A stretch of DNA of 64,000 nucleotides, taken from contig CAZLEV010000002.1 in assembly GCA_964558645.1 (NCBI GenBank), positions 64,001-128,000 on the forward strand, given 5' to 3'. Shown piece after piece: positions 28,576 to 48,639 of this stretch (within the stretch, counting starts at the first letter, position 1; every line of letters starts with the position of its first letter). The notes beneath the pieces are model-generated. The model saw nothing but the letters and a program-made list of their open reading frames with translations, was not told the origin of the DNA and did no database searches. The translations under genes were made by a program, and so were the position numbers. Source of the stretch: an uncultured archaeon. GTDB lineage: Archaea > Asgardarchaeota > Thorarchaeia > Thorarchaeales > Thorarchaeaceae.

Positions 28576-29235
28576 GTGATGGTAATTGAGAGGTTGGTTG
28601 TGCACAGACTGCTTCAGGCAGTACCGCCCAGAGAGGCGCCAACCATAGAATTCCCATCCGAATGGATTCTCCTCACCGCATTTGTTTCTCTGTTGTGTAT
28701 CGCCTTCATCGTGCAAAAAGTGATCTCTCAACAAAGAGAAAGAGAGGGTCAAGGAATCCCAACCACGTTTGCGAAATACCTCGACGTCACCTCAGTGTTT
28801 CTGATAATGACCCTCTTGGGCACGCTGGCCCCGTATGGAATATCTTACCGAGGTTATACAGATTACTCGACCACGGAGTTCTTCTTCAGTCTGCAGCTAG
28901 TTTCTTTCCTCTGGTTTCTCTGGTTTGGAACAGATTCTTGGGGGTTCTACCTGCTTTCTTTGCCGAACCTTGCATGGTCACTAACCTTGCTGACATTCTA
29001 CCTCATCTACGTGTATGAGGTGATTGAGTATTGTCAGGGCCAAACAGGCTGGATGAGAGTGGTCTTGACATGGCTAGTCAGTCAACTGCCCGTTCTGATT
29101 ATGCTCATCCCTAACTATCTGGCAGGATTGTTCCTCAGGGAGCTCTTCTATGAGGGGCCCACGTTCATCACCATTGTAGTGGGGCTGATCATAATGAGAA
29201 TCGCAAACCCAAAACCATCAAGAGAGCCTTGGTGA
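28576..29235 (+). CDS. Hypothetical multi-pass membrane protein
   Basis: ~6 hydrophobic segments. Confidence 0.75.
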   Translation: MMVIERLVVHRLLQAVPPREAPTIEFPSEWILLTAFVSLLCIAFIVQKVISQQREREGQGIPTTFAKYLDVTSVFLIMTLLGTLAPYGISYRGYTDYSTTEFFFSLQLVSFLWFLWFGTDSWGFYLLSLPNLAWSLTLLTFYLIYVYEVIEYCQGQTGWMRVVLTWLVSQLPVLIMLIPNYLAGLFLRELFYEGPTFITIVVGLIIMRIANPKPSREPW

Positions 29236-29385
29236 CTAGAACTGAGATCTGCGGATTTCTTCATTTGTGTGGGATGGGTGGCGGACTTATCGGGTCCTCA
29301 GTTGAATCACCCTTCCTGCCATTTTTCATTGCAGATCGGTGCAAGTCTTGGGCATCCTACGCTTCAAGGTGCGGCGAGGTATAGA

Positions 29386-29409
29386 TGGCGGGACCGCCCC
29401 GATTTGAAC
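29386..29409 (-). repeat. att-like copy 2 of tRNA-Arg 3' end
   Basis: tggcgggaccgccccgatttgaac, identical to copy 1 over 23 nt. Confidence 0.9.
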
Positions 29410-29486
29410 TATTATGATATACCTCGACTAGGTTTTTATAGCACCGAACGTTCTTCCACACCTTGTGGAATGGAGGCTGAAGACGA

Positions 29487-31514: not shown

Positions 31515-31831
31515 TGACTAGTGGTGTCAATAGGCTTCGGGTTCTCCAAAGGTTGATTTGACTCCAGGGTCTTTCCGCTTTGCACCGCTTTCAATCAAAC
31601 AGTCGGAAGATTGGCAGTGTATTGTCGGCTTCAAGTTTCGAAGGAGTCTTTCGCGTTTCTCTGTGCGAAGTCTTGTGGCTTCAGCCTTCATCTACTATGT
31701 AGCTCCGGCCCCGAGGTTGAGAGTAGAGAGCAGAGAGGCGGTTGAACCAGAAGAAAGCTGAAAACTGAAGTGGCCTAATTTGTGTGTGATTCGGCCGTTT
31801 CTTGGCCAAACCAATATTATAGCAAGGTAGA

Positions 31832-31855
31832 CGGCGGGACCGGCCGGATTTGGAC
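31832..31855 (-). repeat. att-like copy 3 (degenerate)
   Basis: cggcgggaccggccggatttggac; 4 mismatches to copy 2 over 24 nt; preceded by 'aga' like copies 1 and 2. Confidence 0.75.
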
Positions 31856-32013
31856 GTCCAGAGAACAATTCAGTATGCATCTGCAGACTGTAAAACGCGA
31901 CCACTATGGCACATGCACCCTAACATAAACGCTGGAAGCATCTAGGGAAGATTCAAGAGGTAGGTATTCTTCTTACAATACTCGTAGTCGATATCCATTC
32001 TGGGGAATTTCAA

Positions 32014-32997
32014 TTGTCATTCGAAGAAAATGTGATGCATTTTGATGAAGATGGTTCAATCAGAGAGAAAGTAGATGAAGGCCTAGAAGTGCTAGAGGAA
32101 TTCAGACAAAGATTCCCATTCCATCGCGATTCTCAGGCAATCGAGAACCTGACTGGCGAAGATGTCTATGATCCACGAGTCAGCAAGGACTATTTCTTCT
32201 ACTGGCTCGAATACAAGCTAAAACCCCTAGGTAGGATGGCAGTGGGGTCTACACTTGGATATCGTAGTGCCCGTGACCATATCGAAGTGTTCAAGGAACT
32301 CCTCAAGAGTGCTGTCACGCCAAATTTGGGGCTTGCTGAGAAGGTGGATTTGGAGTGGGAAGAGCTAAGAGGTTTCGGAAACGAGAAGATAATCGCAAAG
32401 AAGATCATATCGGTGTACGACGGTGATGTTCTACCCGTCTGGAAGACATCTCACCTGAAGCATTTCTATGATGCCTTGGTGGGACGTGGCACACTTCCAC
32501 GAGACTTTGATAGGCGATCACTGGGACAGAAATACGAAGTATTGATGGATGGTCTTAGAGGAGTGAAGAGGGGCTCTGACGTGACGTCGGGCTGGCATAG
32601 TGCATATTTCGTCAAGTTCCTTTACGCGTTCTACTATGAACAGGAAATCACTGTGGAACAGCCTCCTGTTTCAATCGAGGCTGTGAGAAATATCGGTCTC
32701 AACAACTACCCCCTGACAGAGATGGATGTTGTCTTCATGTTCTCCAAGCTCCACGAAGAACTCGGCTTCCCCTATATTGTAAAGATGCAGACGGAATATC
32801 CAGACATTCAAGCTCTAGATGAACACAACGATATGATTCGTATAGAGGCGGAATACCGAGCCAGTCATTTCATTCAACATGGGCACCAACCTGAAGGTTG
32901 TGATGTGGTTGTCTGTTGGGAGAGCGATATTGGTGACGATTGGCCAGATCACTGGCCACAAATCATCTCATTACGTGAATATCTCAGTGAGAAATAG
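32014..32997 (+). CDS. Putative restriction-type nuclease (McrB-N-like domain plus PD-(D/E)XK-like domain)
   Basis: C-terminal YPDIQA...RIEAEYRASHFIQHGH..GCDVVVCWE; N-terminal YFFYWLEYKLKPLGRMAVGS. Confidence 0.65.
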   Translation: MSFEENVMHFDEDGSIREKVDEGLEVLEEFRQRFPFHRDSQAIENLTGEDVYDPRVSKDYFFYWLEYKLKPLGRMAVGSTLGYRSARDHIEVFKELLKSAVTPNLGLAEKVDLEWEELRGFGNEKIIAKKIISVYDGDVLPVWKTSHLKHFYDALVGRGTLPRDFDRRSLGQKYEVLMDGLRGVKRGSDVTSGWHSAYFVKFLYAFYYEQEITVEQPPVSIEAVRNIGLNNYPLTEMDVVFMFSKLHEELGFPYIVKMQTEYPDIQALDEHNDMIRIEAEYRASHFIQHGHQPEGCDVVVCWESDIGDDWPDHWPQIISLREYLSEK

Positions 32998-33029
32998 GTT
33001 TGAATGAACTCGGCGGGAGGTAAGGCAGA

Positions 33030-34535
33030 ATGGGTGAGGAATTCTTCACTTGGCTCGACAACCAAGTAGCATCAGAACTATCGCGTCAAGAGAAGAAGGG
33101 CATATTAGAGCTTCTCCAGAGAATATACATGGGAAGCCACATACGCGAGGAGGGAGTTAGGCAGGATGAGGATTTCATCAGTCAGAATGAATCGCATCTT
33201 GAAATCCTTTCCTCTTCGGAACTTGTCAAGAGCCGCAAGTGGTATGGGAACAGAGTGGTGGCCCCTACAAACAGAGGTATAGGCTTTGCTAAGACCATCA
33301 TCCAAGAGAATCTTCAGAGGAACTCTGGGGTAATCAAATCATTGATTTCCTCAATCAATGAATCATTGCTTGGGTTCATAGTCAATCACTTGCTGTCGAG
33401 AACGCTTTCACTCGAAGTGTCGGAGGCAGATATTGGGGAGTACTACTGGGATTGGCAAGAAATCATCTTTCTGGACAAGCGGGCCAAGCGAGCGAAAAAT
33501 GAACTCCTTGAAGGTCTAAAAAGTTTGGGACTTTCTGTTTCCGTGCACTACTATGTTTCAACTCGCGGAAAGGAATTGCGTGAACTCAATTACGTCATTG
33601 CACCGGAGATTCGGAGATACCTGCAAGATGAAGTCTGTTTTCCGGAGATATCTTGGCAGATTATCGCAAATCTGAGAGTTGCAGCGGCCCTCTGCAACGG
33701 GTATACATCTGATGAAGAATATGATGTCTTCTTCTCTTTCGATGATGAACCCGAGATACCAGAAAAATACCAACTCGCGGCAGCAAGCAAAGCGTTGATG
33801 GCCTTGCGTGAAAAGAGCGGTTTGAAATATCACACCATCGATAATGAAGGCTTTGAGATTCGTGCGGTAAATCAAGAGTCTGTACATCGGATAGCCAAAG
33901 GAATCGTCACTGAGTGCGTCGACGAGTTGCTATCGCCGGAAGACTCCAAAGAACAGAATCAACTAACAGATGCACAAGAGCATCTCGAGGCTGGAGAGAT
34001 ACCAAGGTTAATCAAAGAGCTTGTCGAAAAGAAAATGCAGTTGTTTCGGGCCTGTGCTCGAGTCCATCAGAAGAGCCTCTTTCGATCCACCCCCTCGACA
34101 GAGCAGATAGTTGTTAGGCTTCAATTATTGCCTCATAATGAAGAGGGTCTGTCTGTCTTCGTTAACCTGCTTCATCATTTCTTGATTGAAGCATCAGATA
34201 TGGTACTGCAATTCAATCAATCCGAAGAAAGAGAGCACAAGCTAATCTACAACTGGCTAGGTTTCAGCATTGGTTCAGAGCGCCGCGAAAAATACAACCA
34301 AGCAGGTATGTTCTTCCGGGAATTAAACAATCTCAGGAACTACTTCAGCCACCTAGAACACCCTGAAACTGTTTCTGTTGCCTGCGACATTCTTGAACAA
34401 TGGACTAGAAACGCATTCCCATATACACGGGAAGAGATTCTTTCTGCAAAGGTCAGAATTCTAAGCCTCGCAAAGAGTGCATTAAGCTCTCTGGAGCATC
34501 TGATACAACAAGACTACCGTGCCGACGTGAAGTGA
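33030..34535 (+). CDS. Hypothetical protein with C-terminal HEPN-like RxxxxH motif
   Basis: ELNNLRNYFSH in a helical C-terminus; 501 aa. Confidence 0.6.
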   Translation: MGEEFFTWLDNQVASELSRQEKKGILELLQRIYMGSHIREEGVRQDEDFISQNESHLEILSSSELVKSRKWYGNRVVAPTNRGIGFAKTIIQENLQRNSGVIKSLISSINESLLGFIVNHLLSRTLSLEVSEADIGEYYWDWQEIIFLDKRAKRAKNELLEGLKSLGLSVSVHYYVSTRGKELRELNYVIAPEIRRYLQDEVCFPEISWQIIANLRVAAALCNGYTSDEEYDVFFSFDDEPEIPEKYQLAAASKALMALREKSGLKYHTIDNEGFEIRAVNQESVHRIAKGIVTECVDELLSPEDSKEQNQLTDAQEHLEAGEIPRLIKELVEKKMQLFRACARVHQKSLFRSTPSTEQIVVRLQLLPHNEEGLSVFVNLLHHFLIEASDMVLQFNQSEEREHKLIYNWLGFSIGSERREKYNQAGMFFRELNNLRNYFSHLEHPETVSVACDILEQWTRNAFPYTREEILSAKVRILSLAKSALSSLEHLIQQDYRADVK

Positions 34536-35204
34536 AAGAAAAGGGGGAATCCAACAATGTCCATGGCATCGTAGAGAACGGGAAGTGAGGTGGAGGAAGA
34601 AGCGGCGGGGCTCCCCACATTCACCCCTCCCCCATTCGCGCCGAAGCTCCTTCTGCAGAGAGATCTTGTCGAGCTCTTCCATTGTCTGCTTGAAGTCCTC
34701 GGTCAGCTCGAACTCGGGAATCAGGCGGATCCATTTCACGAGTTTGCCTTCTTCAGCCTTGAAGACATCAGAAACACGAATATCCGCAATCGGGACATAC
34801 TGAGTTTCGAATCCTTTGTCTTGCAGTCTTTTCAAGAGCTCCTCGGCCCTCATCATCCCCAACCTCCGTTCGGTCTCCTGACGCCTAAGGATTCTTATGA
34901 TTTGCTTCTTGATGTCAGGCAACTGCTTCAATTCCTCAGACTCTTCTTCACTGAGTGCACGCAAGAACCAGCGTAACTCCCCAACCTCTACGCCCCTACT
35001 GTCACGGCAATAATCGATTGTCTTGTCGATGAGCCAGTTGTCTAGGGCGTATTGGATGGCCTGATTTGCCAGACTTGGCTTGTTCAGGTCACCCTGAGAT
35101 TCAATCCTGTCTTTGAGAGCTTCTTCCAGGTCCTCAAGAGGTAACCCTCGCTGGCCGCACGTGTCCAGCAAATCCATTAGAATTGCGACAGCTCCATCTA
35201 TCAT
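34482..35204 (-). CDS. Paralog 2 of double-wHTH-like core protein, C-terminal frameshift/readthrough
   Basis: Similar to 48640-49230 up to KELRRE. Two extra G in a G-run put the ancestral TGA (34621-34623) out of frame. Confidence 0.8.
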   Translation of the reverse strand: MIDGAVAILMDLLDTCGQRGLPLEDLEEALKDRIESQGDLNKPSLANQAIQYALDNWLIDKTIDYCRDSRGVEVGELRWFLRALSEEESEELKQLPDIKKQIIRILRRQETERRLGMMRAEELLKRLQDKGFETQYVPIADIRVSDVFKAEEGKLVKWIRLIPEFELTEDFKQTMEELDKISLQKELRREWGRGECGEPRRFFLHLTSRSLRCHGHCWIPPFLSLHVGTVVLLYQMLQRA

Positions 35205-35463
35205 CTTGTTCTCTCTCAGGTTTCTCCATATGCAATTTCAACTCATTGCCAAGTTCCTCCGACTGCGACTTCAGACAAGCCGCGGACACGATACCGATGA
35301 ATAGAGTCGAGAACACCACGAAGAGGACTAGGCCCCCGATGTTCGCGGAGGCCTCCGGGTATAGGTCAAGGGGGAGCATCGACGCGGTGGTCAGGACCAG
35401 CACGACGCGGAGCACAGCAATGAACCTGAAGAGGGCGACCTTCAGGCCACCATTCTCGGTCAT
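35134..35463 (-). CDS. Small two-TM hypothetical protein, possibly remnant
   Basis: Two hydrophobic segments; GAGGTG upstream; tail overlaps the next gene. Confidence 0.45.
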   Translation of the reverse strand: MTENGGLKVALFRFIAVLRVVLVLTTASMLPLDLYPEASANIGGLVLFVVFSTLFIGIVSAACLKSQSEELGNELKLHMEKPEREQDDRWSCRNSNGFAGHVRPARVTS

Positions 35464-35775
35464 GATTCACACACCTCTCATCGTACAATACGGTGTATCG
35501 GTATTGCTTGAATGTTCGGACAGAGAAAGCAGAGAGCGGATAGAGGTATTGGATGCCTTTAGCAGTGTAATTAGAGTTGCTTTATTTAAAAGAGGTAATT
35601 GACCCTTTGTTACCATTTTGGAGCAATATGGCGTGCTATTATTGGCGGCTACTGTATACTAGTGCACGGATTTCGCAATCTAGCTCCTCATTCTCAGGGG
35701 GCATCTCTATTGTCTTTAGTTGATGTTACCTCCAAAACGCCCTTCATCGAAACATCGATTGGGTTTGATAATCAG

Positions 35776-38613
35776 TTAGACGGATGGCGAAGGTGGCCAC
35801 CAGCGAGGGGCGTGCGTTTCAAAGGCCTCTGGTTGGACAATGCCACATCTCGCAAGAACACTCACGAATTCTCTTGAGTCAAGAAGCCCTGAGAGAGCCC
35901 AGACATATAGTAGAGCGAAAGTCGAAGCATCAAGGAGTGTCACACCTCTATCCTTTGCCACAGAATGAAGATTTCTATCGAAAGTAAGCCAACCTACAGT
36001 AATTCTGTGTGTTGACCGCCCTTGACATTTCTGGAGCGGGGAGAGCGCATCGGAATGACTTTCGATTGGCGTTCCGTCAGTCCTAGTCTTTGCTTCAAAA
36101 CAAAGCCTTACCTTACCTCCTGAGGAAACAAGGTATGCTTCCGGCCGAGGTATGTTGGCACCTGCGCCCCGATCACGTACCTGCTGCGATTCAAGCCCAG
36201 GCCAGAACTGCCCAAGCCCGGTAATTGCACTCCGGACTCCTTCTTCAAAAGCATCGGGCCCGTGTAGAAGCTTCTCTACGTTATCTGTGAATTTGCCCAT
36301 GTACTTCGCCAATAATCGGACGTACTCCGCTCTTCGTCTGGTCAAATCCTCGACTGACCAAAGGGCTCGAGCCTTGCAGTCATAGAACTCTCGCGAGCTC
36401 AGCCCAGTATCTCGAGGTGAAAAGTCCTCATAAGGATACTCTAGGAGATCTCTTACTGTCGATATATCCATCCTTCGAAGACTTTGAACAATCTTTCTTC
36501 CATTAACATCGCGCCGAAAGAGACGTATCAGGTCTGCGCTAGCGTGGTCCGACCCGATTTCTAGACTGTCACGAAGTCTCCTGAGGTGTGAAATCAAATG
36601 CCCACAACTGCCGACCTTCTCCGGACCGCATTTGTCAGCTATCGTCAAGTACTGCTGTAGCACTTCCACCGCACTAGGAACTAGCCGCTCAATGACTTCC
36701 TCGGGAGAATGGAACTGTCCTAGCTTGTCGCCTATATCCTTCAGTGACTCTTCCGAAATTGATGAGTCTAAGAGTGATGCACAGAAATACGCTTGTTGAC
36801 GGCGACGTGTTACTTGCACGGTCATTTCACGACCAGAGCTGTCCATATTGGCGATATATCGGCTATACTGCGATTCGTTCGATACTTCATGGCCGAAGAA
36901 GGAGCTGTCGAATCGGCTAGTCAAGCATAGATAGAAGAGGGCAGCCATCCGGTCAAACGCCTTTCCTCTGAAGACCTCCGACGACTCACCTAGGTTTCTA
37001 ATCAGAAGACAGGCATCGCTCGGTATCGCACCACTAGTGATGACCGCCCGCCCCAGGTCTGTACACTCATAGCGGGTTTCCGATTCGTTTCCATCTGAGG
37101 AGATGAACCCATATCTTGTGAGCGCATCAAGAGAATTCTTCAGAGTCAGTTCCGTTCTTCGGTCCATATCAGGGGGAGCAAAACTTCTGGAAAGAGTTAC
37201 CTCGAGTTGCGAGAGAGATCGCATCCCCTGCCAGATCCATGACAGGAGTGCTAACTGAGTTTCCGAAGCGTCGCGGAGAAGATAGGATTCGAGCCGTGGC
37301 TCTGTGTCCAGGATGTATTCGTCCAAAGAGGATTCCATATCCATGGTCGATTCTGTCAGAATCACGCTTTCGCCCTCTTCTTGGAGTCCAGATCGACCGG
37401 CACGTCCAGCCATATTCTTGTACTTGACTGATGATATTGAAGATTGGGCAACTCTGGTATCGTAGAAGTACACACGCGATGCAGGAAGATTGACCCCAAC
37501 GCCCAAGGTGGTTGTCGACACCAATACTATCAGTCGCCGTTGCCTGAACTCAGATTCAATCAAGGATCGGAGGGTCTTTCCAAGACCCGCATGGTGATAT
37601 GCAACTCCAGTTGAGAAGAGCTTGTGGAAGGTGCGGATAGTATTCTCTGATGAGTAGCGAATCTCGTCAAGCAGTTTATGTGAACGAATGATGTCTTCTT
37701 CGGGGAGTTCAATATCTTCAGACGCAATCCTGCCAGCTAGGTGTTTCGAGATGATCTGGGCAAGCCTTCGAGCATCCTTTCGCGTTGGTACAAAGATGAT
37801 AACCTGAGCGCGAATGTCAGTATCACTTTCCAAGTAGTCTAGCACCATGTACACGAGAACTGCATCCTTGTCCAAATCCGACTCGTACTCAAGCTCTTCA
37901 TGAGAGACCAGACTTCCATTCTCATAGAAGTCGATAGTGTGCGTGTCGGGGTCGAGAACTCCTTCACGAAGCGGCGTTGGCCTCCAATGAGACAAGACAG
38001 AGTGCTTTTCGCATTCAAGCCACTGCTCTATCTGGTCAGTGTTTGAAACCACGGAGCAGAGGGCCAGGATCGGAGGACGCTGTGGATTAGCAAGAAGCTG
38101 GGTAATGGCCGCCTCCTGACGAGCTCCTCGCCTGTGTTCTTCGATGAAGTGCAGTTCATCCACGACAACAAGATCTACACTCAGGACTCTCTCCAAACTT
38201 GTCCTCAGCATCAGCTGGAACAGCTCATATGTGAGGACCAGTACGTTGCTCTCCACCAACGGATCTCCATCTATCGCCTCGTCACCTGTCCATATGTTAA
38301 CCTGTCTGCCGAAAGATGTATTCTCGAGAAAGGAGAAGCGCTCCCCGATCTCTCTAGCCATAGCCTTGTACGGCACCAGATATAGAATCAGTCCGTGTAT
38401 ATTCTGGTACAGCTTCTTCATTATCGCTAGTTCAGCTACGAATGTCTTGCCGCTGCCGTGCGGTGCACTCACCAAGAAACTGTCCCACTCGAAATCCAAG
38501 AGACCCTTCTCTATTGCCTCAGCCTGCGCAGGCCAAATCTCATTAAGAGATCTCTCCTTTAGTATTTTCAAGTAACTACTAGGGAAGTACTTACTAAGTT
38601 CTGAAACGTTCAT
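35776..38613 (-). CDS. Ski2/Hel308-like SF2 helicase fused to C-terminal PD-(D/E)XK-like nuclease domain
   Basis: APHGSGKT, VPYKAMARE, DELH, YHHAGL, TTTLGVGVNLPA, MAGRAGR, TDLGR; C-terminal RPEAYL...LCFEAKT. Start placed at ATG 38613 (ORF track gives 38733). Confidence 0.85.
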   Translation of the reverse strand: MNVSELSKYFPSSYLKILKERSLNEIWPAQAEAIEKGLLDFEWDSFLVSAPHGSGKTFVAELAIMKKLYQNIHGLILYLVPYKAMAREIGERFSFLENTSFGRQVNIWTGDEAIDGDPLVESNVLVLTYELFQLMLRTSLERVLSVDLVVVDELHFIEEHRRGARQEAAITQLLANPQRPPILALCSVVSNTDQIEQWLECEKHSVLSHWRPTPLREGVLDPDTHTIDFYENGSLVSHEELEYESDLDKDAVLVYMVLDYLESDTDIRAQVIIFVPTRKDARRLAQIISKHLAGRIASEDIELPEEDIIRSHKLLDEIRYSSENTIRTFHKLFSTGVAYHHAGLGKTLRSLIESEFRQRRLIVLVSTTTLGVGVNLPASRVYFYDTRVAQSSISSVKYKNMAGRAGRSGLQEEGESVILTESTMDMESSLDEYILDTEPRLESYLLRDASETQLALLSWIWQGMRSLSQLEVTLSRSFAPPDMDRRTELTLKNSLDALTRYGFISSDGNESETRYECTDLGRAVITSGAIPSDACLLIRNLGESSEVFRGKAFDRMAALFYLCLTSRFDSSFFGHEVSNESQYSRYIANMDSSGREMTVQVTRRRQQAYFCASLLDSSISEESLKDIGDKLGQFHSPEEVIERLVPSAVEVLQQYLTIADKCGPEKVGSCGHLISHLRRLRDSLEIGSDHASADLIRLFRRDVNGRKIVQSLRRMDISTVRDLLEYPYEDFSPRDTGLSSREFYDCKARALWSVEDLTRRRAEYVRLLAKYMGKFTDNVEKLLHGPDAFEEGVRSAITGLGQFWPGLESQQVRDRGAGANIPRPEAYLVSSGGKVRLCFEAKTRTDGTPIESHSDALSPLQKCQGRSTHRITVGWLTFDRNLHSVAKDRGVTLLDASTFALLYVWALSGLLDSREFVSVLARCGIVQPEAFETHAPRWWPPSPSV

Positions 38614-38732
38614 CCCAAACACCACCGATATGGGGCTATGCTCTTCCCGGATTTCAGTCTTTGCTCGCGAGTACCTCGAAGTGACTAAATGAGCTGAATC
38701 GGCCGTTGTCCTGATGTTAGCACAAGAAATCA

Positions 38733-38755
38733 ATGCGGGACCTCCCCGATTTGAA
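38733..38755 (-). repeat. att-like copy 4
   Basis: atgcgggacctccccgatttgaa; 20/23 identical to copy 1. Confidence 0.8.
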
Positions 38756-38905
38756 AACCTTCGCCGCCTTTCTTGTTCCGTGCGTAAGAAGAGGCAATCC
38801 CACTAGATTAACCAAAAGAGATCATCATTGCGGCAAACCAGATGGCAGGCCTAAGTCGGCCTTGAAGCTCGATGCAATGAATTTGACAGTGTGCCATGCC
38901 AGATC

Positions 38906-40360
38906 CTATTTCCATGCACGCAATCCTTTGAGGTTTTCTAGGGCTAGGTTCTTTATATCATCAGCGAGTCCTCCACGCGATTTGACTCTGTCGTAGAAGT
39001 TCCTCTTGACCTCGTCTGATATCTTTGCGTCACGAACTGCGAGAATGAATTCCCTTGTTGTTCTATTCAGAGGGTTGGGGTTCTCGGCCAGTTTCTCGTA
39101 CGCCTCATTGGATAGACTATTCCCATCATACTCGCAGGCAAAGGAATAGAACTTCTCACCTAGGGCCGAAGAGGCAGGATAGTACTGCTTCGCGGCTGCG
39201 TTGATCCATCTGACCTTCTCTTCTTCGTCAAGACTGTCAAATGCAGTTCTTAGTAATCCCGCAATGTTAGACCGGTTCTTGTAAGTGCGATTGTCCCCAA
39301 CCGGCTGAGAGAATACAGCTTCGGGCTTGAAGAAGTTGTCCGGTGTGGGAATGAGAGTCAAATTCAGCTCGTCAAATTGACCCGTCATCTCGAACACAGC
39401 CATCAGATTCTCAAACCATCTCTTAAGGCGTTCACAGTTTTCCCCATTGGCCTTCTTGATGGTACACTCAGCAAAGGCACCTTGCCAAGCTGCGAGTAGT
39501 ACATGAGAGGTAGGGGAAACCCGTGACATGGCTTCTCTCATCTCATAGAGAAACCAATCGTACGTGTTGGAAAAGCGGCTCCATTGTCCTGCAGAGGCTA
39601 TCCGTTCTAAATCGCTTGCGGCATCTTTCAGCCGTTCGATGATATTCATTCGTGTTTCCTCCCCGATAGGCGACTCGGTGGGGTGCCAATTTTGCAGTGC
39701 GTCTTTAGCGTAGTCAACAAACGCTATCCGCTCTAGGCGTTGTGTGATTTCTCTTGCAGTTCCTCGCAAAGCTGTGTCGACAATGATCAGAGGCCCAATT
39801 AAAACTGCAAGGGCTAGTATGAGCCAACTGAGGCCTAACAAGTATTCCCACAGAGCAATACTCCAGAGAATGAACAGGATGCCGACACCTGCTCGGCGCT
39901 TGAGTTTCCAGAGCATTTTCTGAACGACCAACGAGTCCATTGCACCCTCGACTATATTGAGTGTGCTTTCAGAAGTAGCAGTCCATGTTGGTTTGTACCA
40001 GTTTGTGACAACCTGGTCTATTGTGGCTACCAGACATTGGAGATCACTGTTGCACTCACGACTGTCCTTCCAGAAGAGTAATGCATCTCGCTTTGAACCG
40101 TACTTGGCCACTCCTTCGATCCACTTGTCAGCTGCCTTGTCAACATTGCTGATGAACAACAGAGCTGTGATGAGTCCAGTGCCTCCACCCAGGATAAGCA
40201 AGGTACTCAACGTGGCAGTTAGGACATCGTCGATCCCCGTTTCAAATAGAGTTGGGAGTAAATCCAGCAACAACGGTGTCAGTAATGCTGTCAAAGAGAA
40301 ACCGATGGCAGTATAAAATCCAATGTGGTCCTCGGATGATAGCATCTGGTTCAGTGACAA
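38906..40360 (-). CDS. Hypothetical 4TM protein with helical C-terminal domain
   Basis: Two TM hairpins then a soluble helical region; remote similarity to 29487-31514. Confidence 0.8.
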   Translation of the reverse strand: MSLNQMLSSEDHIGFYTAIGFSLTALLTPLLLDLLPTLFETGIDDVLTATLSTLLILGGGTGLITALLFISNVDKAADKWIEGVAKYGSKRDALLFWKDSRECNSDLQCLVATIDQVVTNWYKPTWTATSESTLNIVEGAMDSLVVQKMLWKLKRRAGVGILFILWSIALWEYLLGLSWLILALAVLIGPLIIVDTALRGTAREITQRLERIAFVDYAKDALQNWHPTESPIGEETRMNIIERLKDAASDLERIASAGQWSRFSNTYDWFLYEMREAMSRVSPTSHVLLAAWQGAFAECTIKKANGENCERLKRWFENLMAVFEMTGQFDELNLTLIPTPDNFFKPEAVFSQPVGDNRTYKNRSNIAGLLRTAFDSLDEEEKVRWINAAAKQYYPASSALGEKFYSFACEYDGNSLSNEAYEKLAENPNPLNRTTREFILAVRDAKISDEVKRNFYDRVKSRGGLADDIKNLALENLKGLRAWK

Positions 40361-40499
40361 TTTCGCATTCCCCGTGGTCCATTGTCCACGTTTCTGTTCA
40401 CGTCTTTAGGGGAGTTAAGCCAATTATGGTTTTCCATCGGAAGAAGGAACGTCTATGGTGCTTCTTCTCGATTCCTATGGAGGGGTAGTTTCACTCACA

Positions 40500-41036
40500 T
40501 TAGTCTATATGAAGCTCTTCATATCTTCTCATCAGATACCCCAATATCTTGTCGAGGATGACACTGCTTTCCGAGAGAAGGTCCATCTGATCGGTATCCT
40601 TGTAGCCTTTCTCACCATGGACCAAGTTGCATCGGACTTTATACAGCCACATCAAAAGGGTTCTGATAGCCTCTCTTGATTCATCTGAACTGATTGCCTC
40701 CTTAAGCTTCTTTGTGATTGGCAGTCCAGAAGGAGGTCTAGGCCAATACTCCTCTCGATAAATAGGAAGCATATTCAAGTATCGATCTAGACAAGGCCGT
40801 AGCAAGGAAATCAGTTCATCTGGGTCTTCTACCAGATCAATGGTAGCAATTGCTCGTGTAGAATCCCCGCTCGATAGATCAGCTCCTGGATATTTCGTCT
40901 TCTTGTATAGATTGTATAGGATATTGTAGGCTATAAAGACCGAAATGTACCTATTGAAGGCATCGACCTCTTGCTTGGCCTTATGTTGCCATTCCCTTAC
41001 TTTTCCAAGAAACATCTCTCGTTTTTTGTTCTCCAT
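40500..41036 (-). CDS. Apea-like HEPN domain protein
   Basis: DAFNRYISVFIAYNILY and LYKVRCNLVHGEK (RxxxxH). Start placed at MENKK 41036 (ORF track gives 41150). Confidence 0.75.
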   Translation of the reverse strand: MENKKREMFLGKVREWQHKAKQEVDAFNRYISVFIAYNILYNLYKKTKYPGADLSSGDSTRAIATIDLVEDPDELISLLRPCLDRYLNMLPIYREEYWPRPPSGLPITKKLKEAISSDESREAIRTLLMWLYKVRCNLVHGEKGYKDTDQMDLLSESSVILDKILGYLMRRYEELHID

Positions 41037-41256
41037 CTGAAATCCACTCCCCTGATATTGCCCACTTGGCGGACGTTGATACATCGTAACAGTATCCCGA
41101 CTTATAAAAGTGCCTTGCTGGCAATCATTGATTATCACATAATACGGCACCTACCCAATTCCCACCATGATAAAACTCAATGCCCGTGAAGCATCCGAAA
41201 CTAGGACCTACACAAACTATCTCAGGATTTTATTGAGAGTGGAGAAGTGAGTAGAT

Positions 41257-41279
41257 TAGCCGGTTCGACCGGATTCAAA
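41257..41279 (-). repeat. Possible highly degenerate att-like copy 5
   Basis: tagccggttcgaccggattcaaa; 15/23 to copy 1; intergenic, between divergent cargo genes. Confidence 0.35.
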
Positions 41280-41385
41280 GCCAGAGAGGCAAGGGAAATT
41301 GCCGATTGTGACTTCAAGCAGCAGGGAGAAGACTATCCGCGATAGAATAATACGTTCCCGTGTTATCTACTCATAGGCATTTCAA

Positions 41386-42225
41386 TTGAGGCTAACCACT
41401 AGACAGAGAAAGATGATTGAGAATCTTGAAAGAGGGGCAATAGTATGCCGAACTGGATTGCTCTCTAATCCCCTAGTTGGAAAACAGTCGAATTCTCTCG
41501 CGGATTCCATTATCTGTTTCGTTCACAACTATGCCCATGAACGACAGGGCGCCGCCCAAGGATACCGAACACTAGCGGCCCTCTCCGTTGAGAGGGAGAT
41601 TCCGCGGTCGTCCAGATACATCAAACCGTCGGATGTGAGAAGAGTTTGGGAAGTCTACAAGGAACTGGCTGGGAAGTACTTCCCCGATCTCTCACTCAAC
41701 CCCACGAACAATCCTATCAATGAAGACAAGGGTGTCCTGAGTGTTCTGTGTGAAGACAAGACTCCAAACCTTTACGGTCGTGTTACGAATCTTCTGACCC
41801 GCGGCGAAGCGAAAGCAGCGCATGATTTCATTAAACAGATTCGAGGTGTGGGAAACAAGATTGCCGCATTCTATCTTAGAGATATCGTATGCATTGAGAA
41901 AATCCCTGAAGATGAATTAGACACCATACACCTCATACAGCCTGTTGACACGTGGGTCCGACAAGCATATTCCGTGGTTATGGGAAAGAATCTGCCCCAA
42001 GACCAGATTGAAGCGATGAAGGATGTTGCAGATTTGTGCAAAGCAGCACAGTGTTCCCACGTAGAGTTCAATCAGGGAGCATGGGCCTGCGGTAGTCTGC
42101 TCGGCAAGGACATCTACCACCTACGGAGAATAGCAGAAGGATTTGATGACCGGATTCGAGAAAGCTTTGAAGAGGTAAAAAATCTCGCGAAAGGCATGGC
42201 AAAATACTTCGATACAGAGACCTAG
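41386..42225 (+). CDS. HhH-GPD superfamily DNA glycosylase-like protein
   Basis: HhH IKQIRGVGNKIAAFYLRD and catalytic-type QPVDTWVRQ. Confidence 0.7.
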   Translation: MRLTTRQRKMIENLERGAIVCRTGLLSNPLVGKQSNSLADSIICFVHNYAHERQGAAQGYRTLAALSVEREIPRSSRYIKPSDVRRVWEVYKELAGKYFPDLSLNPTNNPINEDKGVLSVLCEDKTPNLYGRVTNLLTRGEAKAAHDFIKQIRGVGNKIAAFYLRDIVCIEKIPEDELDTIHLIQPVDTWVRQAYSVVMGKNLPQDQIEAMKDVADLCKAAQCSHVEFNQGAWACGSLLGKDIYHLRRIAEGFDDRIRESFEEVKNLAKGMAKYFDTET

Positions 42226-42407
42226 AAATCCCGTCTACGTCGGTATTGACACGCCTAATCAGAAACCCGTTTGATATGGTGTCCACATCCGGTTATCTGT
42301 CCATCGGCATAGTCCTCATCCGGAGCGTAGCTCCAACCTCCATGAGGAACAGACATATCTGTCAAAGTCTACATCTGTGATTAACCGAGAGTTGGGGGTT
42401 CATCTGA

Positions 42408-43499
42408 ATGATCTCTACCCTTTTCTATAGGCCAGAGAGAAGAATCGAGGATATGCTAACCCATTGGTTTCTTGCCTTTCTTGACCGATTAGCTGAACAT
42501 CAATCCCCTGCTTGTAGGGATTTGTTCGAAGAACTGGGGTTCAAGCTCGGAGATAATTGGAAGAAGGATTTCAGAGTTGAAAGCCAAGTCAATATTGGAG
42601 AGGGGCGAAGAATCGATGGACTGATCACTGGTCAGAAATATGTTATCGGGTTTGAAAACAAGATAGATGACAAGCACAAAATGAGCCAGATTCGAGAGTA
42701 CTACAAACTACTCCATGAGAAACATGAGCAAGATTGTGCACTCCTGCTGACGTTCGACTGGAATACTCAAACAAGAAATGAGGTAGAAAAACTGATTCGA
42801 GCGGGAGAGGTCCCCGAAAAGGATGTGAGACTTGCGACTTGGCAAGACGTCCACCAAATTCTCATAGATATTGCAGAGAAAAGCCGCGGCACCGGGTTTG
42901 CCTCATTCCTGTGCCGTGAAATGGCCCGGGTATTGGAGAAAATGAAGATGAAATCATACACTGGAATCAACAAAGAACAGATAAAATCCTATTTTGATGT
43001 AAAGCAGAATCTTTCGGTGCTAGACCAACTAATTAGAGAATCGGTGAAGGCTAAGTTTGACTGGTTATTGGAAGGGAGCGGTTCGGATGGTAGTCTTACA
43101 AGAAAGAGAATCACATTTCCTTTCAGAAAGGGCGAGAAGAGCACGTTTCTTTTCTTTAGGTTGGGTGAGGACTCCCTTCACATTGGCGTTCGATGCCCTA
43201 GGCGGAGTACAGATCTCGAACGACTCAAGGAGAGATTGGATTATCGGTCCCTTCTGAACATACTAGAGAAGTCGAAGGAGTATGAGGTGTATGGTTTCGC
43301 GCCCGCATTGGACAAATCACATGGATATGAGGAGATTAGGCAGTTGGATGGCAAACCGAAACTGCATGATCGGCTCCAAGTTTCGAAAGAAGTGCGCCTC
43401 GAAGAAATGAGTAGAAAAGATTTCAAGGACCACATAAAAGACGAGATAGACTCATTGGAAGGTCTAGTCGTTTTTCTCCATCAAACACTCGTAGAATAG
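42408..43499 (+). CDS. PD-(D/E)XK nuclease family protein
   Basis: EDMLT..FLAFL, RIDGLI...IGFENKID...SQIREY, LATWQDV. Confidence 0.8.
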   Translation: MISTLFYRPERRIEDMLTHWFLAFLDRLAEHQSPACRDLFEELGFKLGDNWKKDFRVESQVNIGEGRRIDGLITGQKYVIGFENKIDDKHKMSQIREYYKLLHEKHEQDCALLLTFDWNTQTRNEVEKLIRAGEVPEKDVRLATWQDVHQILIDIAEKSRGTGFASFLCREMARVLEKMKMKSYTGINKEQIKSYFDVKQNLSVLDQLIRESVKAKFDWLLEGSGSDGSLTRKRITFPFRKGEKSTFLFFRLGEDSLHIGVRCPRRSTDLERLKERLDYRSLLNILEKSKEYEVYGFAPALDKSHGYEEIRQLDGKPKLHDRLQVSKEVRLEEMSRKDFKDHIKDEIDSLEGLVVFLHQTLVE

Positions 43500-44314
43500 A
43501 CAAACTAGGTCCAGACAGTCTAATGGTGAGCATACAGCTCAATCGTGAGCTGCACACCCTCCAGCCCCACTAAGTGCGACTGAATACCTCGAGAACAGTT
43601 CGCAGAATACTCTGCTCACCGTCGAGCCAATCGGCAATCCATCGGAGCGCCATCGCCGAATCTGTTTCCGAAGTCCAAATCCTGAAGCGAGCCTTGGCTT
43701 TGCCCAGGCCCAAGCGGCGCAGATGACTGCGTACTCCATAATTGACAACAATATTTCTAGAACGAATGCTGGAGTTATGTTAACTACAACCACTGTTCAT
43801 TTCTCGAGCCGCGTGCATGGTCAACAGAGGACTTGTAGCCGCTGCATCATCCCATCCATCATGGTAAGGATTCATTCGTAGAGCCACGATAAAAGAGCTA
43901 CTTGTACGTACTCTTCTACCAGGAGGTCTGGGACATCCATGTCCCAATGAAAAGGACTGGGCTAGCAACCTTTGCTCTGTTCTAGCTCGGGAGAAGAAGC
44001 AACACCGAAAATCTCCTTGATAGAGTTGTTGGAAAACGTGGAGCGCAACTGTATTTGTCAACTATGTTTTCGTTTCCGTGGAATAGTCGATTGTGTGACT
44101 AGGAAAGAAGCGTCCAAGATAGGTCCTGCTTCTATTCATTGACTCTAGAGGAGTTTCTATGCGAAAAGGATTTGAATGATGGCATAGACTAGCCGGTGAG
44201 ATTCCACCGAAGTAGTGAGGGATAGACTATTGACGGCAAGAGGCCAAAAAGCTGCTAAGAGAGATTCTAGAGGATTCCGACGATGAGTCGGTATCAACAA
44301 GTAGTCTTCTCAGA

Positions 44315-45283
44315 ATGGCCTTGAGAGCAGCCGAGCTGCTTGACCCAGAAAGCGATGAGCATGTTTGGATAGCGCTGGAACTCCAAGGCTATCCTCAAGG
44401 AGGTCTACTGAAAGAAGAAGACACTGTTCCGCCGAAATATCGAACCCCACTGTACAGGTGGGCCGATCTCTTGGCAAGTGGTCCAGAACCAAGAATAACC
44501 TACAGCCCGCCCGATTCAGACCTTCTAGAAAGGATACACCGGGCAAATGATGTCAGATCCATCACATTCTTAGTAAGTGAACCAATCGAGGTTCTTGAAG
44601 AGGCAAATACTCCTGTTTTTCGTTCGGATTCCATTGTTCAAGATGATGGTTTCAATAAGACAATCGTAACTTGGGTTGCGACCATGCCCGTGTATCGCAT
44701 GCAGAGTATCGTCAAGGCAGTCAGGTCACGAGTCCACGCTTTCGCACTCACAAAGCTCGTTTCTATCGAGTTCGGAGAAGCGACAAAGCATTTGCTTGAG
44801 GGAAGCAGAGTGTATGTTGCAGAGAAAATGGAAATCCTCAGCCCAGATTTGCTAAGGGAATTGCTTGAAACATTGGAGAAACAAGAGAGTGGAAGAACTG
44901 ACATCAACTCCAGAATAGTGGTTCAGAACTGCCTGACTTTCGTTCAGAGGATAACAGATATACTACTACGCGACAGCATGATTCCCGAGAGTGAATCAAG
45001 ACCCTCAACCGGCCAAACCCGAAACAAACTAAGCCTAATTCTTGCTTGGGCCAAAAAGAATAGTACCAAAAAGCTTGATGAAGAAAGAGAGTTGGTGAAA
45101 AGGACCTTCAATCACTTCTTCTTCTACTCGAAATCTCTTCAGAAAACAATCGATAAACAACGCCACAAGGATCCGATTCTCGTTAGCAAGGATGAAGTGG
45201 ACAGAATCCTCGTCTACCTCCTGACTTGGCTTGCCGACCTACTCAGAATATTAGACCACGCAAACTATGAATGGGAATCCTAG
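44315..45283 (+). CDS. AbiTii-domain protein
   Basis: (LLREILED..VSTSSLLR)MALRAAELL....HVWIALELQGYP....VPPKYR resembles the AbiTii N-terminal domain. Confidence 0.7.
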   Translation: MALRAAELLDPESDEHVWIALELQGYPQGGLLKEEDTVPPKYRTPLYRWADLLASGPEPRITYSPPDSDLLERIHRANDVRSITFLVSEPIEVLEEANTPVFRSDSIVQDDGFNKTIVTWVATMPVYRMQSIVKAVRSRVHAFALTKLVSIEFGEATKHLLEGSRVYVAEKMEILSPDLLRELLETLEKQESGRTDINSRIVVQNCLTFVQRITDILLRDSMIPESESRPSTGQTRNKLSLILAWAKKNSTKKLDEERELVKRTFNHFFFYSKSLQKTIDKQRHKDPILVSKDEVDRILVYLLTWLADLLRILDHANYEWES

Positions 45284-45542
45284 TAGACCTGCAACTGCTA
45301 AGTGAGATGCATGGCAACCAAATCTCTCAATCACGAAGCATACTCTGAAGAGGTATTCACCCGGGCTTTCTCATCGTCCGTTTGTAGTGCACAATCGACT
45401 CATAGACGCATTTCCCGCTCTATCACCCTGTTTGGGGTCTATGTTCCCTTACATTCCCCATCTGGATTCAGACCCGAAGTCGACAGGATGTCGTGAAACC
45501 AAGTTGAGTCCTTTCTTCCGCTTGATCTACACTCCAAAAGAA

Positions 45543-47015
45543 TCACATGTAGAATCTATAGCTTGTTCTTGGCTCTGTTCGAGTTTCCGATTCGGACAAA
45601 AGACCACCAACTGTTCTTGAGAAGCTCAGAGTTATTGGCTCCTTGAGGCAATAGGCGGCCGAGTTCCAGTTCATCTTTGTTAGTCCGAGGATATCTTCGC
45701 ATAGTGCTTGGTTAGGAGAATCTCCGACGTGCTGCAGTAGAGACAAAGGGCGAGGTGTAGAAGGGCCCCAATACTGTCCCATAAACGGCACATATCCCTT
45801 CGTGTAGAGATGTAATCGATTATCGGTCGTAACCGAGTAGGTTCCTCGAATCGGTGGATGATCACCTGCCCTTAGCAGGCGAAAGCCGGATCCTCCAACT
45901 GCAACTAGATCGGATTGCTCAACACTATCTAGAGCAGATAGAACTCCATCGGATTCCTCCTCGCTGAACTTGGAGCTCTTGTGAATGACTACCTTGTGAG
46001 GAGGATGTCCCTCCTGCCGCCTATATGTGTCCAAGACCTGTTCAAGAAGCCTCTTGGCACTCCCCCTCTTCAGGTGTGGTTGGCGATCAGACTCCTCCTT
46101 TCTTGCCTTGCCGCCCTTTAGCACTAAGCCCTCACCACGGTGAGAGAATACCTGAGCAACACTGGTCTTGAGATCTAGATTCGTCTTTGACTCATAGAAA
46201 GAGATGCCGACAAAACACGTTCCGATGGAGGCATTGGCCAGCCGCCACGGATGACCACCAGCCTTGTAACAAAACGCAACAGCCAGATTCCAAGCAACTG
46301 TACACATATCCTGAACATTTGTTCCTAGGAGCGTCGACGGTCTGATAACCTGAGTCGGAATGCCCAATTGCATTCCCTTGGACTTGATCACTCTCCACAT
46401 GGAGCTGAAATGAATCTCTTCAGCCTCCTCTGTCATTACCTCCTCAAGTGCTTCATACTCATCATGAGGGTCAGTCCTGACTTTCCGGCGTTTCTTGGCA
46501 ATTGGCCGGCCGAACCTATCCCAATATTTCGTACATTCTTCTTCGAACTCGGGAGGTAATGCGACGACTACAATCTGAGGTTTCGGCTCCCTTTCAGAGA
46601 AATTCTGCAATTTCTGCTCCAGACAGCCATATGCGAATCTTACTTTCCCGTCGAAGTCCTTCTTTTCACTCAGCTGCTTCAATTCCTTGGCCGTGATTAT
46701 CTGGCAATCGGTCGTACTACATTCGATAGAAAAACCAAGCGGCGAATCCATCGATAGACCCGGGAAGTCTGGCATGAAGCCTTTTGACGGAGGAGACCAA
46801 ATAGGACGCGCAAGTCGTCCTATCAGATTGAGTAGCAAGTCACTTGTTCTCTTGGAGCCAATGACCCCTAGAGAAATGCGCATGGGTATTTCGGTGCCAC
46901 GGGGTAGAATAGGACCAAACAAGCTCAGGCCCGTTCTCTGGTCGATACACCGGTTTCCTCCGCCAAAGAGAAGCTCAACATCGGGAACAATCCCGACTTC
47001 GCTAATTCCAGACAT
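45543..47015 (-). CDS. ago: Short prokaryotic Argonaute (MID-PIWI, catalytically inactive)
   Basis: GLSLFGP, LGVIG, PDFPG, IPTQVI, AWNLAVAFCYKAGGHPWRL, CFVGISFY, VVIHKSS, LTKMNWNS, PITL, C-terminal YRFYM. No N/PAZ domain; no DEDX tetrad. Start placed at ATG 47015. Confidence 0.93.
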   Translation of the reverse strand: MSGISEVGIVPDVELLFGGGNRCIDQRTGLSLFGPILPRGTEIPMRISLGVIGSKRTSDLLLNLIGRLARPIWSPPSKGFMPDFPGLSMDSPLGFSIECSTTDCQIITAKELKQLSEKKDFDGKVRFAYGCLEQKLQNFSEREPKPQIVVVALPPEFEEECTKYWDRFGRPIAKKRRKVRTDPHDEYEALEEVMTEEAEEIHFSSMWRVIKSKGMQLGIPTQVIRPSTLLGTNVQDMCTVAWNLAVAFCYKAGGHPWRLANASIGTCFVGISFYESKTNLDLKTSVAQVFSHRGEGLVLKGGKARKEESDRQPHLKRGSAKRLLEQVLDTYRRQEGHPPHKVVIHKSSKFSEEESDGVLSALDSVEQSDLVAVGGSGFRLLRAGDHPPIRGTYSVTTDNRLHLYTKGYVPFMGQYWGPSTPRPLSLLQHVGDSPNQALCEDILGLTKMNWNSAAYCLKEPITLSFSRTVGGLLSESETRTEPRTSYRFYM

Positions 47016-48540
47016 CGTCTTCTTCCTCCCCGCAACCAAATTCCTGTTCCGTGATTTGATGGTCGTCTACGTCAAAGCTGTATTCTTCGAGCGTTGGCTG
47101 CCTTGCATGATATAGATTACAGACCGGACGTCTGATACGCTCCGAAAGGCGTTTCTGAAAATCTTCAGGAATGCCGAAGCCGACTTGGCAGTCTACAGGA
47201 CTAGCATCGATTTGAATTGGAGGGCCCCCTGTGGCTATTTCCAGAGTGGGTTTTCCCCCTGAAACCAGATTCATCCAAAACATGAGGTCGAATAGAAGGC
47301 GTCTGTTACCGTGTCGAGCCCAAGCTCCGGATGACAACTTCGTCATCAGTCTTGCCTTTACACGATTCTGTCCATCTGTCGTGAAGTAGAATCCGGGCTG
47401 CAGCATTAGGTAGTACTCGTCACCCATCTGCATAAACCGCAGCGAAATCCCCTGATGTTTCCAGAAGGATTTCTTCTCCTTCGTAAGCACCCGTGTTATT
47501 CGTCGCGTTCCAGGCTTCCACTCACAATAGCACTCAAGTCCGTCATCAGACGGAAAGAAGAACATCGGTCGCCCCGACCTACTTCGTTTCCACATTCCAA
47601 GGGACTTAAGATGAGAGTATGCTGATTCATTCAGTAAGTGAGTGAGCCATCTCTTCTTCTCAGAAGTGTCGAAGACCTCGGTAATTGGTTTGAGCCAGAC
47701 CGTATTGTCCGATTTCGCCTCGGCCAATGGGTTTTCAGTTTTGTTCAAATCAGAGAAGGTTAGTATTCTTCGTTCCCGCAAAATGAAAGGGTCAGGTCGC
47801 TCACCTATATCCTCCAGCAAGTCCCTGGCCCATCTGTAGTCAGTTCTGGCAGCATAGATAGACGTGGGAAATTCTAGCACACCATAGAGGTTTGTTACAA
47901 GTGTTTCTTGAAGGGAGGGTATTTCGCCCATTCCAGATAGTGCATCTGCAATCTGCTTTGCCGGAAGAACCAAGCGGGAAAGGGTACTCTGGACAAGCCT
48001 ATTGTCTGACTGAATGAACCGGTCTATTGTCAGAATATCCCCGCAATACACTTCGGATCTTGAAATGAATGACTTCAGGACATCAATATCCAGACCGGAG
48101 AGAGCTTCTGCAGCGGCCTTGTCTTCGCTCCTTGTATTCTTCTGAAGCACTTCTACCGCTCTTCCAAGCAAACCAAGTGCCTCATCCCAGTCGTAGTTCT
48201 CGAATACCTTCTCAAGGAGTTCGTGGTTTGAGAAGGACCGAGCGAAGTATATGAAGCGGAATCGATCTTCAGGCAGGAGCTTGGAGAACTTGAACAGTTG
48301 ACGTCCGAATGGAAGGAGGAAAGTTTCTGAGAAGGGTGAAACTCGCGTATTCTTGCATTCGACTAGGACCTTAGTGTCCTGTCTATCTAGGAAGATGATA
48401 TCTTCGTATGACCCTTCTATCGGGGATTCTACTATCTTAAGAAGCCCTTTCTGTTCCAAGAAACGAGAAACAGCATGGCGGTATTGTTCACCACTGTAAT
48501 GTTGCGCTTCCCGTCCCTTTCCCAGAGTGTAGAAGCCCAA
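47002..48540 (-). CDS. PD-(D/E)XK nuclease-APAZ effector partner of short pAgo
   Basis: N-terminal EDIIFLD...VLVECKN. C-terminal APAZ-like ETLVTNL, ILTFSDL, LTHLLN, WKHQGISLRF, YLMLQPGFYFTTDG, N..LLFDLMFW. Overlaps the ago start. Confidence 0.85.
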   Translation of the reverse strand: MGFYTLGKGREAQHYSGEQYRHAVSRFLEQKGLLKIVESPIEGSYEDIIFLDRQDTKVLVECKNTRVSPFSETFLLPFGRQLFKFSKLLPEDRFRFIYFARSFSNHELLEKVFENYDWDEALGLLGRAVEVLQKNTRSEDKAAAEALSGLDIDVLKSFISRSEVYCGDILTIDRFIQSDNRLVQSTLSRLVLPAKQIADALSGMGEIPSLQETLVTNLYGVLEFPTSIYAARTDYRWARDLLEDIGERPDPFILRERRILTFSDLNKTENPLAEAKSDNTVWLKPITEVFDTSEKKRWLTHLLNESAYSHLKSLGMWKRSRSGRPMFFFPSDDGLECYCEWKPGTRRITRVLTKEKKSFWKHQGISLRFMQMGDEYYLMLQPGFYFTTDGQNRVKARLMTKLSSGAWARHGNRRLLFDLMFWMNLVSGGKPTLEIATGGPPIQIDASPVDCQVGFGIPEDFQKRLSERIRRPVCNLYHARQPTLEEYSFDVDDHQITEQEFGCGEEEDDVWN

Positions 48541-48639
48541 TTCGTTACAACCCTCCGAGAGGAACAGATGGGGCCATGACTATATGAAGGTATGCCAAAG
48601 AGAGGCAGTTTCTAGAACATGCGCAACGTTCAATGCCCA

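Follow-up and report, generated by a model that had tools for sequence, protein, structure and literature searches.

Among short prokaryotic Argonaute (pAgo) systems with a nuclease effector, mechanistic studies have covered only two types: SPARDA (Nba, Xau, Eae, Tmu), in which a DREN nuclease is fused to an APAZ domain, and SPARHA (Acidithiobacillus caldus, structure 9om4), in which the APAZ-fused effector is an HNH nuclease. A restriction-like REase class is mostly known from uncultured archaea; 'REase' has been named among APAZ-fused nucleases (PMC10810196), and 'additional uncharacterized effectors' have been mentioned for the pAgo clade S2B (PMC12738770). Here, we analyzed a 64,000-nucleotide stretch of an uncultured Thorarchaeaceae genome from marine sediment (contig CAZLEV010000002.1 of assembly GCA_964558645.1, positions 64,001 to 128,000; hereafter the window), and describe within it a two-gene operon at 45543-48540 that pairs a short pAgo with a nuclease-APAZ partner of this restriction-like class. 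The arrangement matches SPARDA in its two-gene operon, in the N-terminal PD-(D/E)XK domain carried on APAZ, and in its apparently catalytically dead MID-PIWI pAgo, but differs in nuclease family, in the placement of both pAgo and APAZ outside the DREN-linked clades, and in its archaeal host.

Both open reading frames (ORFs) were verified on the minus strand, the partner at 47002-48540 and the pAgo at 45543-47039, in agreement with the overlapping two-gene operon reported by a first-pass annotation of the window that had been made from the sequence alone; its broader reading of a nuclease-APAZ partner with a short pAgo was likewise upheld in all tests run. The upstream gene, P0001 (47002..48540, 512 amino acids (aa)), runs from a TTG start at 48540 to a TAG stop at 47002-47004 and encodes, from N to C terminus, a PD-(D/E)XK nuclease domain, a linker, an APAZ domain and an acidic tail. 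The MID-PIWI pAgo gene, P0002, occupies 45543..47015 when read from the ATG at 47015 (490 aa), which is also where the database copy of this protein begins, with an alternative in-frame TTG at 47039 giving 498 aa. Read from its ATG, the pAgo gene begins before the partner gene has ended at its TAG stop, and the resulting 14-nucleotide (nt) overlap (47002..47015) suggests that translation of the two genes is coupled. Direct reading of the 99-nt intergenic region upstream of the partner (48541..48639) revealed a TATA-like TTCATATA at 48581-48588 and a GGAGG at 48552-48556, 11 nt ahead of the TTG start, which we regard as the operon's own putative promoter and ribosome-binding site.

The pAgo matches no Pfam family even at E ≤ 1, and is matched over essentially its full length by the PADLOC pAgo_I profile (E = 1.4e-130, profile positions 5-455 of 455). 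Its closest solved relatives by sequence are the SPARDA Argonautes (9qbp_B, 9qbl_B and 9jsb_A; 4.9e-62 to 3.4e-58), with the SPARHA Argonaute 9om4_B close behind (1.4e-57), SPARTA Argonautes at about 1e-44, and long Argonautes matched weakly. At 490-498 aa, it can be aligned along its whole length with solved short pAgos, which measure 471-507 aa, and it consists of MID and PIWI domains alone, without N or PAZ domains, as had been called initially. The PIWI positions expected to hold catalytic aspartates read G278-I279-S280 and H353-K354-S355, confirming the GIS and HKS motifs of the first-pass annotation, and both are invariant among the closest relatives that form its clade. A phmmer alignment of pAgo residues 330-459 with TtAgo 521-644 places TtAgo D546 at about residue 354-355; judged by motif position and this alignment offset, the catalytic DEDX tetrad appears to be absent. 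In the MID domain, R216, K219, Q230 and K259 show little or no variation, and are the candidate residues of the 5'-end pocket expected from the published R/Y-K-Q-K pattern.

For the partner, a full-length AlphaFold2 (AF2) model built from 87 relatives reached a predicted local distance difference test (pLDDT) score of 84.7. Residues of about 210-449 (47194..47913, minus strand) form a beta-rich APAZ domain in this model, and are joined to the nuclease domain by a helical linker of low model confidence (residues about 179-209; 47914..48006, minus strand). APAZ-bearing PADLOC profiles match residues 207-464 (2.5e-30), and a Foldseek comparison of the modeled domain with the solved APAZ folds of SPARHA, SPARDA and SPARTA gave template modeling (TM) scores of 0.73-0.78. 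By sequence, the closest solved APAZ is the HNH-APAZ chain of SPARHA (9om4_A; 1.5e-15, fold TM 0.73), ahead of the DREN-APAZ chains (1e-6 to 1e-3). By these sequence comparisons, both the pAgo and the APAZ matches are far above chance. The locus thus resembles SPARHA in its pAgo, its APAZ and its use of an APAZ-borne nuclease effector, but carries a PD-(D/E)XK domain where SPARHA carries HNH. Beyond APAZ, residues 450-512 (47005..47193, minus strand) form a disordered tail (pLDDT below 50) with 16 D/E vs. 6 K/R, recalling the acidic C-terminal tail of SPARDA partners. In SPARDA, the negatively charged C-terminal tail of DREN-APAZ fills the guide/target groove at rest (bioRxiv 10.1101/2025.04.08.647717), and the acidic tail here may, by analogy, act as a similar auto-inhibitory plug.

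The N-terminal nuclease domain spans residues 1-178 (48007..48540, minus strand; AF2 domain model pLDDT 89). Its modeled core runs alpha1(10-30), beta1(34-38), beta2(48-51), beta3(57-67), alpha2(72-86) and beta4(95-103), followed by a three-helix insertion (106-160) and beta5(162-166). Alignments of 87 full-length members and 72 N-terminal domains (N-domains) showed D47 and K63 to be invariant and E11, S39 and E61 to be at least 90% conserved, with E11 invariant among the 72 N-domains. In the model, E11 opens helix 10-30, D47 immediately precedes strand 48-51, and E61-C62-K63 falls within strand 57-67, making E11, D47, E61 and K63 the candidate catalytic residues. The ED...ECK motif noted in the first reading is therefore present as E46-D47 and E61-C62-K63, and the modeled alpha-beta-beta-beta-alpha-beta core with its E, D and (D/E)xK positions places the domain in the PD-(D/E)XK superfamily, in keeping with the restriction-endonuclease-fold matches that dominate fold searches with this model.

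An exhaustive search of 1.84 billion representative proteins, using a profile of residues 1-210 from the window partner and the two relatives nearest to it, returned 127 clusters carrying the N-domain. Because almost every full-length member measures 450-540 aa and has the domain beginning at residue 1, the domain is known, at this sensitivity, solely as an APAZ fusion. A search of species-representative genomes with a 4-row alignment found no relative.

Pfam and NCBIfam assigned no family to either window protein or to the 87 partner relatives, so classification rests on PADLOC profiles, Protein Data Bank sequences and folds. The Pfam DUF4365, Mrr_cat and Cap4-nuclease families and NCBIfam SMEK each matched 0/87 partner members at E ≤ 0.01, HNH families gave no match in the partner, and hhalign comparison of the N-domain profile with 33 DREN domains of neighboring systems returned a probability of 0.4%. 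No DREN chain appeared among the best 50 matches listed in the N-domain fold searches. In contrast, the PADLOC profile PDLC02417, labeled 'Aga_REase_Archaea', was matched by all 87 relatives (best 3.6e-124), which had been gathered via the N-domain alone. The window protein is itself a weak, divergent member, with P0001 residues 38-411 matching profile positions 11-350 at 9e-19 across both nuclease and APAZ, and its APAZ domain is matched more strongly by the generic REase-APAZ profile PDLC02415 (2.5e-30). A literature search for the source of the PADLOC label returned nothing relevant.

By structure, the modeled domain appears closest to Cap4/DUF4297-type nucleases. Its best match is the Lamassu nuclease LmuA (9hr5_A; Z 11.0 over 178 residues, with a root-mean-square deviation (rmsd) of 5.5 that is high and obtained with a predicted model), alongside HerA-DUF4297 (9c1m_G; Z 11.0 over 176 residues, at an rmsd of 11.3 that is likewise high for the same predicted model), a second LmuA chain (9nxx_B; Z 10.9), Avs3 (Z 8.8) and Cap4 (Z 8.1). 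These Cap4/LmuA-type matches cover the core and the helical extension (143-180 residues aligned), compared with Z scores of 5-7 for generic PD-(D/E)XK and restriction folds. LmuA, HerA-DUF4297, Cap4 and the N-terminal nuclease of Avs3 are defense DNases switched on by assembly; they differ from the window protein in that it has no sequence match to any Pfam family, including the Cap4 nuclease family, and in that its sensor is APAZ plus pAgo, whereas Cap4-type nucleases are coupled to SAVED, an SMC-like protein, HerA or a STAND ATPase. The Mrr-like/SMEK-APAZ system of Kordia shares with it the fusion of PD-(D/E)XK to APAZ and the same broad pAgo clade (S2B of the literature), but neither SMEK nor Mrr_cat is found in the family, and AspBHI, which has been published as a structural analogue of SMEK, is a middling match here (Z 5.5).

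These results revise part of what the first-pass annotation had proposed. Its label of a SPARDA-like or Mrr-like system survives as SPARDA-like in expected function only, since by sequence the effector is not DREN/DUF4365, SMEK or Mrr_cat, and the profile comparison with DUF4365/DREN and Mrr_cat that it had put forward came back negative. Its suggestion of a distinct subtype proved real, but the class is already catalogued, in PADLOC and in one survey, with the window protein as a divergent member.

We next placed the locus among its relatives. Searching species-representative genomes with the pAgo alignment yielded 80 loci at 32-40% identity, from 76 of which an upstream partner ORF could be extracted. 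The window's N-domain profile matched 0/76 of these partners, and the N-domains of 71 of them comprised DUF4365 (33), TIR (23), Schlafen AlbA_2 (13) and 2 without an assigned domain. Within the window's phylum, the N-domain occurs in 11/399 other genomes and in 0/85 of the window's own family, and in 11/11 of these same-phylum loci the partner is directly followed by an overlapping or adjacent short pAgo. The sub-branch to which the window belongs is small and divergent, with about seven clusters when grouped at 50% identity (E < 1e-30), all of them metagenomic, and an overlapping Piwi gene lies downstream of the partner in 3/3 of its metagenomic contigs.

In a pAgo tree of 100 rows, the window pAgo falls in a clade of 8 (support 100) together with seven metagenomic proteins at 45-55% identity. 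This clade is sister (support 96) to TIR-linked pAgos of Thermoplasmatota. The ten pAgos of the window's phylum that go with this nuclease class fall in a clade of their own (support 100). The DREN-linked clade comprises 37 rows (33 labeled DREN and 4 unlabeled) and does not include the window pAgo. The APAZ tree gave the same picture with weaker support. In these free trees, the window protein forms, with about six other clusters, a branch that stands apart from the main Aga_REase_Archaea family and among TIR- and Schlafen-linked lineages, a pattern that suggests exchange of the nuclease domain between pAgo lineages. An approximately unbiased test in which the window branch and the main family were forced together gave p = 0.0505, for a group that was defined after the tree had been seen.

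The genome-encoded pAgos nearest to that of the window come from a Bathyarchaeota (L003:2673-3953; 40% identity) and a Nitrososphaerales genome (L004:2616-3968; 38%), and their APAZ partners carry a 168-aa N-domain that stands alone in the clustering of this set, the one in L003 being without a Pfam family. A Hadarchaeota locus (L006:2906-5410) holds a single 834-aa ORF that looks like a fusion of the partner region to a short pAgo. In one same-phylum genome (G056; L104:301-984 and 1321-1806), the partner is split into two ORFs beside an intact pAgo, through frameshift, decay or an assembly error. Finally, in 13 mostly archaeal short-pAgo loci (L021, L023, L025, L027, L029, L032, L035, L036, L038, L041, L042, L043 and L047), from hosts that include Nitrososphaerota, Methanoperedens, Thermoplasmata, Woesearchaeota and Nanoarchaeota, the partner is a Schlafen AlbA_2 domain fused to APAZ. 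These split Schlafen-APAZ forms may be related to the SLFN-pAgo fusions treated in a 2026 preprint (10.64898/2026.05.29.728809).

Taken with published SPARDA and SPARHA mechanisms (10.1101/2023.06.08.544223, PMC10810196, PMC12205087, PMC12738770, 10.1101/2025.04.08.647717), we consider it likely that the operon encodes a two-gene short-Argonaute abortive-infection system with a guide-triggered non-specific DNase. The catalytically dead MID-PIWI Argonaute and its upstream-encoded partner would join into a heterodimer through the partner's APAZ domain, as in solved relatives, and this heterodimer would take up a small guide, probably 5'-phosphorylated RNA from invader transcripts, and scan for complementary DNA. 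At rest, the acidic C-terminal tail and the arrangement of domains would hold the N-terminal PD-(D/E)XK nuclease inactive; once guide and target pair, the complex would change conformation and assemble into a higher-order form in which nuclease domains come together and cleave DNA without discrimination, so that the infected cell dies or is arrested. Our analysis establishes the gene architecture, the identity of the domains, the conserved catalytic residues, the relationship to SPARDA and SPARHA Argonautes and the accessory or mobile setting, whereas formation of the complex, the type of guide, collateral activity and oligomerization are inferred from relatives. Indiscriminate cleavage fits because the effector resembles assembly-activated DNases, and collateral DNase activity triggered by a guide is what likeness to SPARDA would lead one to expect. 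The sporadic distribution of the system (11/399 in the phylum, 0/85 in the family, and absent from a same-genus genome) was counted in favor of this proposal, as were the recurrent pairing of partner and pAgo genes, the defense-like neighbors and the identical copy in a second study with both ORFs intact.

A number of points weigh against this proposal. The N-domain profile has no detectable similarity to DREN; the window pAgo lies outside the DREN-linked clade, so mechanistic details may not transfer; our literature search found no experimental study of the Aga_REase_Archaea class; and both guide type and loss of the catalytic tetrad were read from motif positions rather than from a structure-based alignment. 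In addition, the SMEK nuclease-APAZ system of Kordia is described, as cited in PMC10810196, as cleaving its target and not collaterally.

A more specific version of the proposal, which we hold as tentative and on balance doubtful, is that Cap4/LmuA-like nuclease-APAZ proteins make up a mechanistically separate, largely archaeal class of short-pAgo systems. Recognition of the target by Argonaute would then lead to LmuA-like tetramerization of the nuclease rather than to a DREN-type filament, and the window branch would have arisen by transfer of the nuclease onto an APAZ-pAgo module of another lineage. If true, this would show directly that effectors are exchanged as modules between Asgard Argonaute systems.

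Rather less probable, in our view, is that the system is a guided, target-specific DNA cutter in which the APAZ-fused nuclease replaces the lost PIWI site and cuts the target it has recognized, or DNA close by, without collateral damage or cell death. A single PD-(D/E)XK domain tethered to a sensor could in principle act in cis. However, SPARDA and SPARHA, as the two short-pAgo nuclease systems studied in depth, both cleave collaterally once filaments have assembled, the structures most like the nuclease domain are those of non-specific DNases activated by assembly, and in the model the long linker sets the nuclease apart from the guide-target cleft.

The surroundings of the operon raise a further alternative. 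An Asgard host, as first proposed, is supported in that the nearest named relatives of an archaeosine synthase-like housekeeping gene in the window are from Candidatus Thorarchaeota and Promethearchaeota, at about 50% identity. The operon lies within an island at 27642..56681 that has housekeeping genes on both outer sides and ends in a tRNA-Leu(CAG) gene (56592-56681, minus strand). The 3'-terminal 19 nt of this tRNA recur as exact direct repeats at 27642-27660, at 29386-29404 and from 56592, delimiting segments of 1.7 kb and 27 kb of non-core DNA, the pattern expected where one or two elements have integrated at tRNA-Leu. Pfam recognized no integrase or replication gene among the scanned island ORFs, several large ones of which have no family.

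Inside the island, the operon sits in a variable cargo block (35208..48639, 13.4 kb) that also carries other defense-like genes. Comparison by blastn with a same-genus genome (G384, locus L113; flanking peptidase 95% identical) showed that 35208-48639 is missing there, while the flanks, the tRNA end, a HerA-like three-gene set and two small paralogous genes are retained; aragorn called no tRNA in that region, although the 19-nt tRNA end is present. In the window, the block is flanked by these two small genes (34482-35204 and 48640-49230; about 72% identical in nucleotide sequence), whereas in G384 they are only about 260 nt apart, which makes the block look like a hotspot of insertion or exchange. 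Together, the direct repeats and the absence of the block from this genome bear out the initial view of the operon as cargo of a mobile element.

Beside the operon, the block holds a 985-aa HamB-like DEAD-box helicase (PADLOC HamB, 3.6e-45) preceded by a 484-aa ORF without a family (both within 35776-40360); no HamA was recognizable, and the two may form a variant Hachiman-like pair. It also holds a PDDEXK_4/PDC-S26-like protein (42408-43499) and a weakly AbiTii-like protein (44315-45283). Between the operon and the tRNA lies a co-oriented three-gene set (48640-56190; 87% nucleotide identity in G384) that encodes proteins of 196 aa and 1161 aa without a family and one of 1180 aa with a HerA/DUF87 ATPase domain. 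With their HamB-like, AbiTii-like, PDDEXK_4/PDC-S26 and HerA-like ATPase genes, these surroundings look like a defense island. The locus is identical, with both ORFs intact, in contigs of a second, independent marine-sediment study, one of which bridges the junction at 48640. Our search of public runs found no RNA dataset with the locus. As a separate observation, the genome's match to the 16S rRNA model (L002; G000:C10:124412-126689) spans 2278 nt, although the model has 1478 positions, which suggests that the gene contains at least one insertion or intron.

Given this context, the system could serve the mobile element itself, by excluding competing plasmids or viruses or by stabilizing the island as an addiction-like module, and the placement of the operon in a tRNA-bounded island, in a variable block beside defense-like genes, is compatible with such a role. 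We nevertheless find it improbable as a separate explanation: mechanistically it does not differ from guide-triggered abortive infection, defense genes commonly ride on mobile islands, and the island lacks any integrase or replication gene recognized by Pfam. Very improbable indeed is that the operon is a bona fide SPARDA whose DREN-APAZ partner has merely diverged, since, although SPARDA Argonautes are the best solved matches of its pAgo and both effectors are PD-(D/E)XK domains fused N-terminally to APAZ, DUF4365 was found in none of the 87 family members vs. 33/71 partners of neighboring pAgos in the same scan, hhalign saw next to no likeness to DREN, pAgo and APAZ both fall outside the DREN-associated clades, and the APAZ domain is nearer to HNH-APAZ than to DREN-APAZ.

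As an abortive-infection system, the operon would extend a known defense paradigm rather than reveal a new one, and the gain is in that sense incremental. An Asgard representative with intact catalytic residues, found identical in two sediment studies, is nonetheless a reasonable candidate for reconstitution and potentially a further programmable collateral nuclease. Its study could reveal whether Argonaute controls a Cap4/LmuA-type nuclease by means of filaments, as it does with DREN and HNH.

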